A stretch of DNA of 64,000 bases, from NCBI RefSeq assembly GCF_000027125.1, contig NC_017626.1; one strand, 5' to 3'. The notes under the pieces were generated by a model. That model searched no databases, was not told the origin of the DNA, and saw nothing but the letters and a program-made list of their open reading frames with translations. Below, piece after piece: positions 23,017-23,214 of this stretch. Position numbers and translations under genes: made by a program. The stretch comes from Escherichia coli 042. Its GTDB lineage: Bacteria; Pseudomonadota; Gammaproteobacteria; Enterobacterales; Enterobacteriaceae. The first letter of the stretch is position 1. Every line of letters begins with the position of its first letter.

Positions 23017-23214
23017 ATTTTTTTCCATCAGATATAGCGTATTGATGATAGCCATTTTAAACTATGCGCTTCGTTTTGCAGGTTGATGTTCGTTATCAGC
23101 ACTGAACGAAAATAAAGCAGTAACCCGCAATGTGTGCGAATTATTGGCAAAAGGCAACCACAGGCTGCCTTTTTCTTTGACTCTATGACGTTACAAAGTT
23201 AATATGCGCGCCCT

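Follow-up and report, generated by a model that had tools for sequence, protein, structure and literature searches.

The interval upstream of yceD in Escherichia coli 042 lies between two divergent genes and contains the small RNA gene sraB. We analyzed a stretch of 64,000 nucleotides (the window), which aligned with E. coli K-12 MG1655 over positions 22990-23260 with a single mismatch, at 23091 (C here, T in K-12). Because of this near identity, the K-12 annotation carries over directly to the window. On the minus strand is yceF (22432-23016), encoding an m7GTP pyrophosphatase of the Maf family. On the plus strand are yceD (23215-23736), encoding a DUF177 protein of 23S rRNA accumulation, and the second gene of its operon, rpmF (23788-23961), which encodes ribosomal protein L32 and is preceded by a strong Shine-Dalgarno sequence, GAGGAG (23774-23779, plus strand). 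The K-12 annotation, the alignment, and the open reading frames all place sraB (annotated long form, 169 nt; 23010-23178, plus strand) between yceF and yceD and on the strand of yceD. yceF and sraB, on opposite strands, overlap by the first 7 nt of yceF, at the annotated 5' end of sraB. The mechanically called yceF reading frame starts at 23055 and is longer than the annotated version. A longer yceD reading frame is impossible, as an in-frame TAA at 23200-23202 excludes an upstream start, and two minus-strand reading frames (23028-23150 and 23062-23157) were dismissed as chance.

Two other features were seen near the locus. An IS3-family element, labelled IS1397 in matching genomes, is inserted between rluC and yceF at approximately 20913-22416 (reading frames 20965-21687 and 21792-22322, minus strand) and adjoins a REP-like palindrome (22370-22424). 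Of 5426 complete E. coli genomes, just 4 had a match covering at least 80% of a query spanning rluC, the element, and yceF, which sets the window apart from K-12. Downstream, the 5' coding part of plsX contains a perfect 11-bp G+C-rich hairpin, CAGTGCCTGCAGCATTGCAGGCACTG (24100-24125, plus strand), which surfaced as a terminator-like site and as a spurious match to SNORA5.

The small RNA encoded in the interval is SraB. The first-pass annotation had suspected a small RNA here but could not fix its coordinates or strand; alignment with K-12 sraB settled both, at 23010-23178 on the plus strand. The Rfam model RF00077 matched these positions over its full length (1-169 of 169) with 209.8 bits, compared to a gathering score of 130, and an E value of 2.7e-45. 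Locus, strand, and length are identical to those of the K-12 gene (b4418) and 168 of 169 nt are shared; the sole difference, the mismatch at 23091, falls in the apical loop of hairpin 1 and is without structural consequence. The interval originally flagged, 23056-23214, begins inside sraB. Rfam matches to SNORA5, naRNA4, and BASRCI337 were sub-threshold and were taken as chance, as was a terminator-like site on the minus strand (23143-23121).

Published data indicate that the actual SraB is shorter than the annotated gene. In 2021, a re-analysis of data from dRNA-seq and Cappable-seq put the SraB start 60 bp downstream of the annotated 5' end, giving a form of approximately 105-109 nt. It gave approximately 99 nt for Salmonella SraB, which has a homologous start (Ramachandran 2014, PMC3963941). 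Northern blots and RNA-seq, as cited in that re-analysis, detected SraB as a discrete RNA in both K-12 and Salmonella, and SraB is a published ligand of ProQ. In the window, the short form is approximately 109 nt (23070-23178, plus strand). It is predicted to fold into two hairpins and an intrinsic terminator with a free energy of -33.1 kcal/mol (z = -2.86), all on the plus strand: hairpin 1 at 23070-23110, hairpin 2 at 23118-23146 with a conserved core at 23126-23138, and the terminator at 23149-23178, composed of a stem-loop (23149-23173) and a T-run.

The 5' end of short SraB is the start site of the distal promoter of yceD, P1 (catalogued as yceDp1), because both map to the same nucleotide, 23070, at -145 from the yceD ATG. 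Short SraB is therefore also the terminated leader of P1. The -10 element of P1, TAAACT (23058-23063, plus strand), is within the published box TTTAAACT and is near-invariant across genera. It belongs to a near-invariant sequence, CATTTTAAACT (23052-23063), in which two divergent -10 elements overlap: TAAACT on the plus strand and TAAAAT on the minus strand (23054-23059). We read the minus-strand hexamer from the sequence as the probable -10 element of the yceF promoter; it fits the published yceF start (1145848, minus strand, in NC_000913.2; Kim 2012), which corresponds to position 23046.

A second promoter motif directly abuts the yceD start codon. The hexamers TTGACT (23177-23182) and TAATAT (23200-23205), separated by 17 nt on the plus strand, were found by a promoter scan and a pattern search exactly where the first-pass annotation had placed them, close to the ATG at 23215. 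This motif, P2 (yceDp2), matches the sigma-70 consensus at 5 of 6 positions in the -35 element and 4 of 6 in the -10 element (9 of 12 in total), its spacer is within the range of 16-18 nt, and it is followed by a G+C-rich discriminator, GCGCGCC (23206-23212, plus strand). As annotated, sraB ends at 23178 and so shares the first two bases of the -35 element, with the T-run of the terminator continuing into the hexamer. Neither this overlap nor the start at 23070 had been noted in the first-pass annotation. The bare consensus match proves nothing alone, because the scan of positions 22000-24500 found one sigma-70-like site compared to 2.2 expected from shuffled sequence (per 2.5 kb). The exact 29-nt P2 pattern was present once in the 64-kb window and had 0 matches in 100 shuffles.

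Transcription from both promoters has been mapped. The original mapping of the yceD-rpmF promoters is reportedly that of Tanaka in 1989. The starts used here were mapped in K-12 and in Salmonella SL1344 and were placed on the 042 window by sequence identity. In E. coli, Mendoza-Vargas 2009 (PMC2760140, supplement) listed two starts for yceD: one at -2, marked as new and supported by 8 reads, with GTTAATAT as its -10 box, and one at -145 with the box TTTAAACT (flagged 'Known, yceDp1'); at both promoters the sequence here is identical to that of K-12, with the same boxes. In SL1344, yceD has its primary start at the homologous -2 position and a 5'UTR of 2 nt (Ramachandran 2014, PMC3963941, Table S1). 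This start matches the early-stationary-phase start, was detected in both growth phases, and heads the operon SL1344_1127-1132; the Salmonella SraB start is a secondary yceD start in the same data. A 2026 preprint gives yceDp1 and yceDp2 as the known yceD-rpmF promoters. Transferred to the window, the P2 start is 23213 (plus strand), which is 8 nt downstream of the -10 element, inside the 6-9 nt expected, and leaves a leader of 2 nt (5'-CU-AUG) before the ATG. The proposal that a sigma-70 promoter abuts yceD and makes a nearly leaderless transcript thus agrees with mapped starts in two organisms, and also with Nakahigashi 2014, in which yceD is without a 5' noncoding leader.

The P2 elements were invariant in every sequence compared. 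The homologue search used the YceD protein rather than the promoter as its anchor and yielded 80 species from approximately 35 genera of Enterobacteriaceae plus Winslowiella. Five more distant genera (Erwinia, Pectobacterium, Dickeya, Ewingella, and Rahnella) were added through YceD protein matches, among those listed with at least 80% identity. The comparison was therefore within the Enterobacterales and comprised 81 sequences (the window and 80 species), or 86 with the five distant genera. The -35 element (CTTTGACT) was identical in 86 of 86 sequences, and the spacer was 17 nt in all 86 even though its sequence was variable. A 25-nt block that includes the -10 element, the discriminator, and the ATG (GTTAATATGCGCGCCCTATGCAAAA, 23198-23222) was likewise identical in all 86. 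Among the 81 species this block was the longest invariant run in the 1016-nt alignment, in which 30 of 173 wobble positions of yceD were invariant.

We considered whether TTGACT and TAATAT are a chance occurrence, such that yceD-rpmF is transcribed solely from P1 (23070), when polymerase reads through the SraB terminator, with a 145-nt leader. The lack of enrichment in the promoter scan would fit, and two published data sets point the same way: Kim 2012 assigned yceD the -145 start alone (491 reads; TSS 1145872 in NC_000913.2), and Romero 2014 reported no more than five leaderless E. coli mRNAs, with yceD not among them. The parts of the supplements of Ettwiller 2016 and Romero 2014 that could be searched contained no match to yceD or sraB. 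However, the -2 start was detected in E. coli, and in Salmonella it is the primary one in two growth phases. The hexamers, their separation of 17 nt, and their distance from the ATG do not change across 86 sequences, right next to a terminator loop that varies freely. In addition, a conserved strong terminator separates P1 from yceD. We find a chance origin of the motif barely credible. Based on the published -2 starts in K-12 and Salmonella and the invariance across the Enterobacterales, we conclude that P2 is a real promoter.

The invariance around P2 extends beyond the promoter into yceD. In codons 2-13 (23218-23253), 6 of 12 silent positions were invariant, compared to 24 of 160 elsewhere in the gene (Fisher p = 0.0075), which suggests extra constraint or selection on the 5' end of the mRNA. 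Because this wobble invariance runs into the coding region, the promoter hexamers alone are insufficient to explain the conservation. One reading is that 23171-23240 is conserved mainly at the level of RNA, as an initiation region without a Shine-Dalgarno sequence, as a site where a protein binds the mRNA, or as the mRNA 5' end itself, and that the promoter role is secondary. In contrast, the conserved positions follow the logic of a promoter (a -35 element, a spacer of fixed length and variable sequence, an extended -10 element, and a discriminator), and the mapped starts fall at the proper distance from the -10 element. The two readings can both hold, and the invariance of GTTAATATGCGCGCCCTATGCAAAA would be compatible with either role. 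We consider it unlikely that the RNA-level role is the main one, and we continue with P2 as a promoter.

The yceD mRNA made from P2 is effectively leaderless, with a 2-nt UTR and no Shine-Dalgarno sequence. The predicted duplex with the anti-Shine-Dalgarno sequence was -0.4 kcal/mol for yceD, weaker than at 78% of random positions, compared to -8.8 kcal/mol for rpmF. Without a Shine-Dalgarno sequence, yceD on the P2 mRNA would have to use the leaderless (5'-terminal AUG) route of initiation. This would fit the finding that yceD is less efficiently translated than rpmF (Nakahigashi 2014), a gene with a strong ribosome-binding site of its own. Like the leaderless mRNAs of lambda cI, Tn1721 tetR, and E. 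coli dicA, racR, ymfK, pgpA, and rhlB, the yceD mRNA has its AUG within 2 nt of the 5' end and lacks a Shine-Dalgarno sequence. It differs from them in that its AUG is preceded by 2 nt instead of being 5'-terminal, it differs from the mRNAs of mobile-element repressors in that yceD heads a ribosomal-protein operon, and, unlike the members of the Romero 2014 set, it was not detected in that study.

P2 may be a stringent-type promoter that is repressed by ppGpp. At ribosomal-protein promoters, a G+C-rich discriminator couples output to growth rate via ppGpp and DksA. Like rRNA and ribosomal-protein promoters of the rrnB P1 type, P2 has a G+C-rich discriminator, GCGCGCC, and a start 8 nt after the -10 element, and by analogy this discriminator would make P2 a stringent-type, ppGpp-repressed promoter. 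Upstream of P2, the sequence GTGCGAATTATTGGC (23134-23148) is strongly conserved between genera. It may resemble the Fis consensus (G, an AT-rich core, and C), and its center is approximately 72 bp upstream of the P2 start, at the distance that Fis site I has from the start of rrnB P1.

Data from Salmonella are consistent with repression by ppGpp. ppGpp appears to repress the Salmonella homologue of P2: the SL1344 yceD start had 5 reads in the wild type and 57 in the ppGpp0 (relA spoT) strain, low counts with a tabulated ratio of 4, and its GCGCGCC discriminator was scored as 100% G+C (Ramachandran 2014, PMC3963941). Salmonella SraB was repressed by ppGpp, with 22 reads in the wild type and 209 in ppGpp0 (Ramachandran 2014, PMC3963941). 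In the literature examined we found neither a report of direct action of ppGpp or DksA on P2 nor a measurement of P2 activity in the absence of ppGpp for E. coli, where the mechanism would be the same by analogy.

The SraB terminator is conserved as a structure. There were 45 distinct versions of the terminator hairpin among the 81 sequences, and 43 of the 45, each folded separately without an alignment, gave a stem-loop abutting the T-run despite differing upper stems. Judged from these predicted folds, the structure is upheld through compensatory changes, as expected of a terminator. Applied to a MAFFT alignment of all 86 sequences, RNAalifold found no covariation and retrieved no part of the terminator stem except its invariant base; it misses the upper stem because differences in loop length misalign that part. 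In hairpin 2, a compensatory change from CGCA/TGCG to CGCT/AGCG was found in the more distant families.

Hairpin 1 of short SraB is limited to a few genera. In E. coli, E. albertii, Salmonella, one Citrobacter, and Intestinirhabdus, yceF and yceD are separated by 197-198 nt; in nearly all remaining genera the spacer is 140-143 nt. The difference is a 56-nt insertion (23067-23122) that forms hairpin 1, and in genera without it the P1 RNA would be approximately 50 nt. In keeping with this, only Escherichia, Salmonella, and Citrobacter reached the Rfam threshold for SraB; matches in other genera, with their shorter RNA, were significant but sub-threshold. Cedecea and its relatives (sequences L052, L056, and L060, upstream of position 1501) have a spacer of 232-267 nt in which the conserved sequence of hairpin 2 is missing; the terminator is retained in them, as is the invariant P2 block.

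The conservation of the short form bears on what SraB does. SraB could be mainly the terminated P1 leader of yceD-rpmF, a cis-acting attenuator with regulated read-through, and not mainly a trans regulator. The start of short SraB is the very nucleotide catalogued for yceDp1, and P1, hairpin 2, and the terminator are retained in all Enterobacterales families sampled, including genera in which the P1 RNA is approximately 50 nt. Moreover, in the SraB and ProQ literature examined we found no trans target of SraB validated by base pairing. On the other hand, SraB is a stable, abundant RNA that is bound by ProQ, and an egg-albumen phenotype of sraB in S. Enteritidis is cited in other papers. Read-through has no known regulator, and the operon is already served by P2, from a position downstream of the terminator. 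We regard a mainly cis-acting SraB as possible but doubtful.

Based on the published starts, the near identity to K-12, and the comparison across genera, we believe, with a probability of roughly 90%, that the interval represents the control region already known for yceD-rpmF, with two tandem promoters, in which P1 gives rise to SraB and P2 to a near-leaderless yceD mRNA. Transcripts from P1 (start 23070) would mostly end at the intrinsic terminator (23149-23178) to give the short, ProQ-binding SraB, and those that read through would enter yceD with a 145-nt leader. P2 would start at 23213 and supply most of the yceD-rpmF mRNA, on which yceD would be translated by the leaderless route and hence weakly, and rpmF from its own ribosome-binding site. 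The GCGCGCC discriminator, by analogy, may tie the output of yceD-rpmF to growth rate through ppGpp and DksA. All of the elements (sraB, yceDp1, yceDp2, and the leaderless status of yceD) are already published.

A more integrated arrangement is conceivable, in which P1, the structured RNA, the terminator, P2, and the near-leaderless yceD are one unit. SraB, at approximately 50 nt in most genera, would then be primarily a cis leader that tunes yceD-rpmF, either by its own termination and read-through or by occupancy of the P2 -35 region, and the conservation in codons 2-13 would reflect selection for leaderless initiation. We consider this arrangement improbable; if true, the L32 operon would have an autoregulatory leader not described before.

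For annotation of this genome, sraB should be called at 23010-23178 on the plus strand, with a probable functional 5' end at 23070, and yceD should be given two promoters, the proximal one producing a 2-nt leader. What the comparison adds is modest: the block of promoter, discriminator, and AUG is absolutely invariant in five families of the Enterobacterales, and a 56-nt hairpin sets the SraB of Escherichia, Salmonella, and Citrobacter apart from a much shorter form elsewhere, which raises the question of whether SraB is a leader, a small RNA, or both. Taken together, the invariance of the block and the hairpin comparison indicate that yceD is one of the few chromosomal housekeeping genes of E. 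coli with a conserved near-leaderless mRNA.
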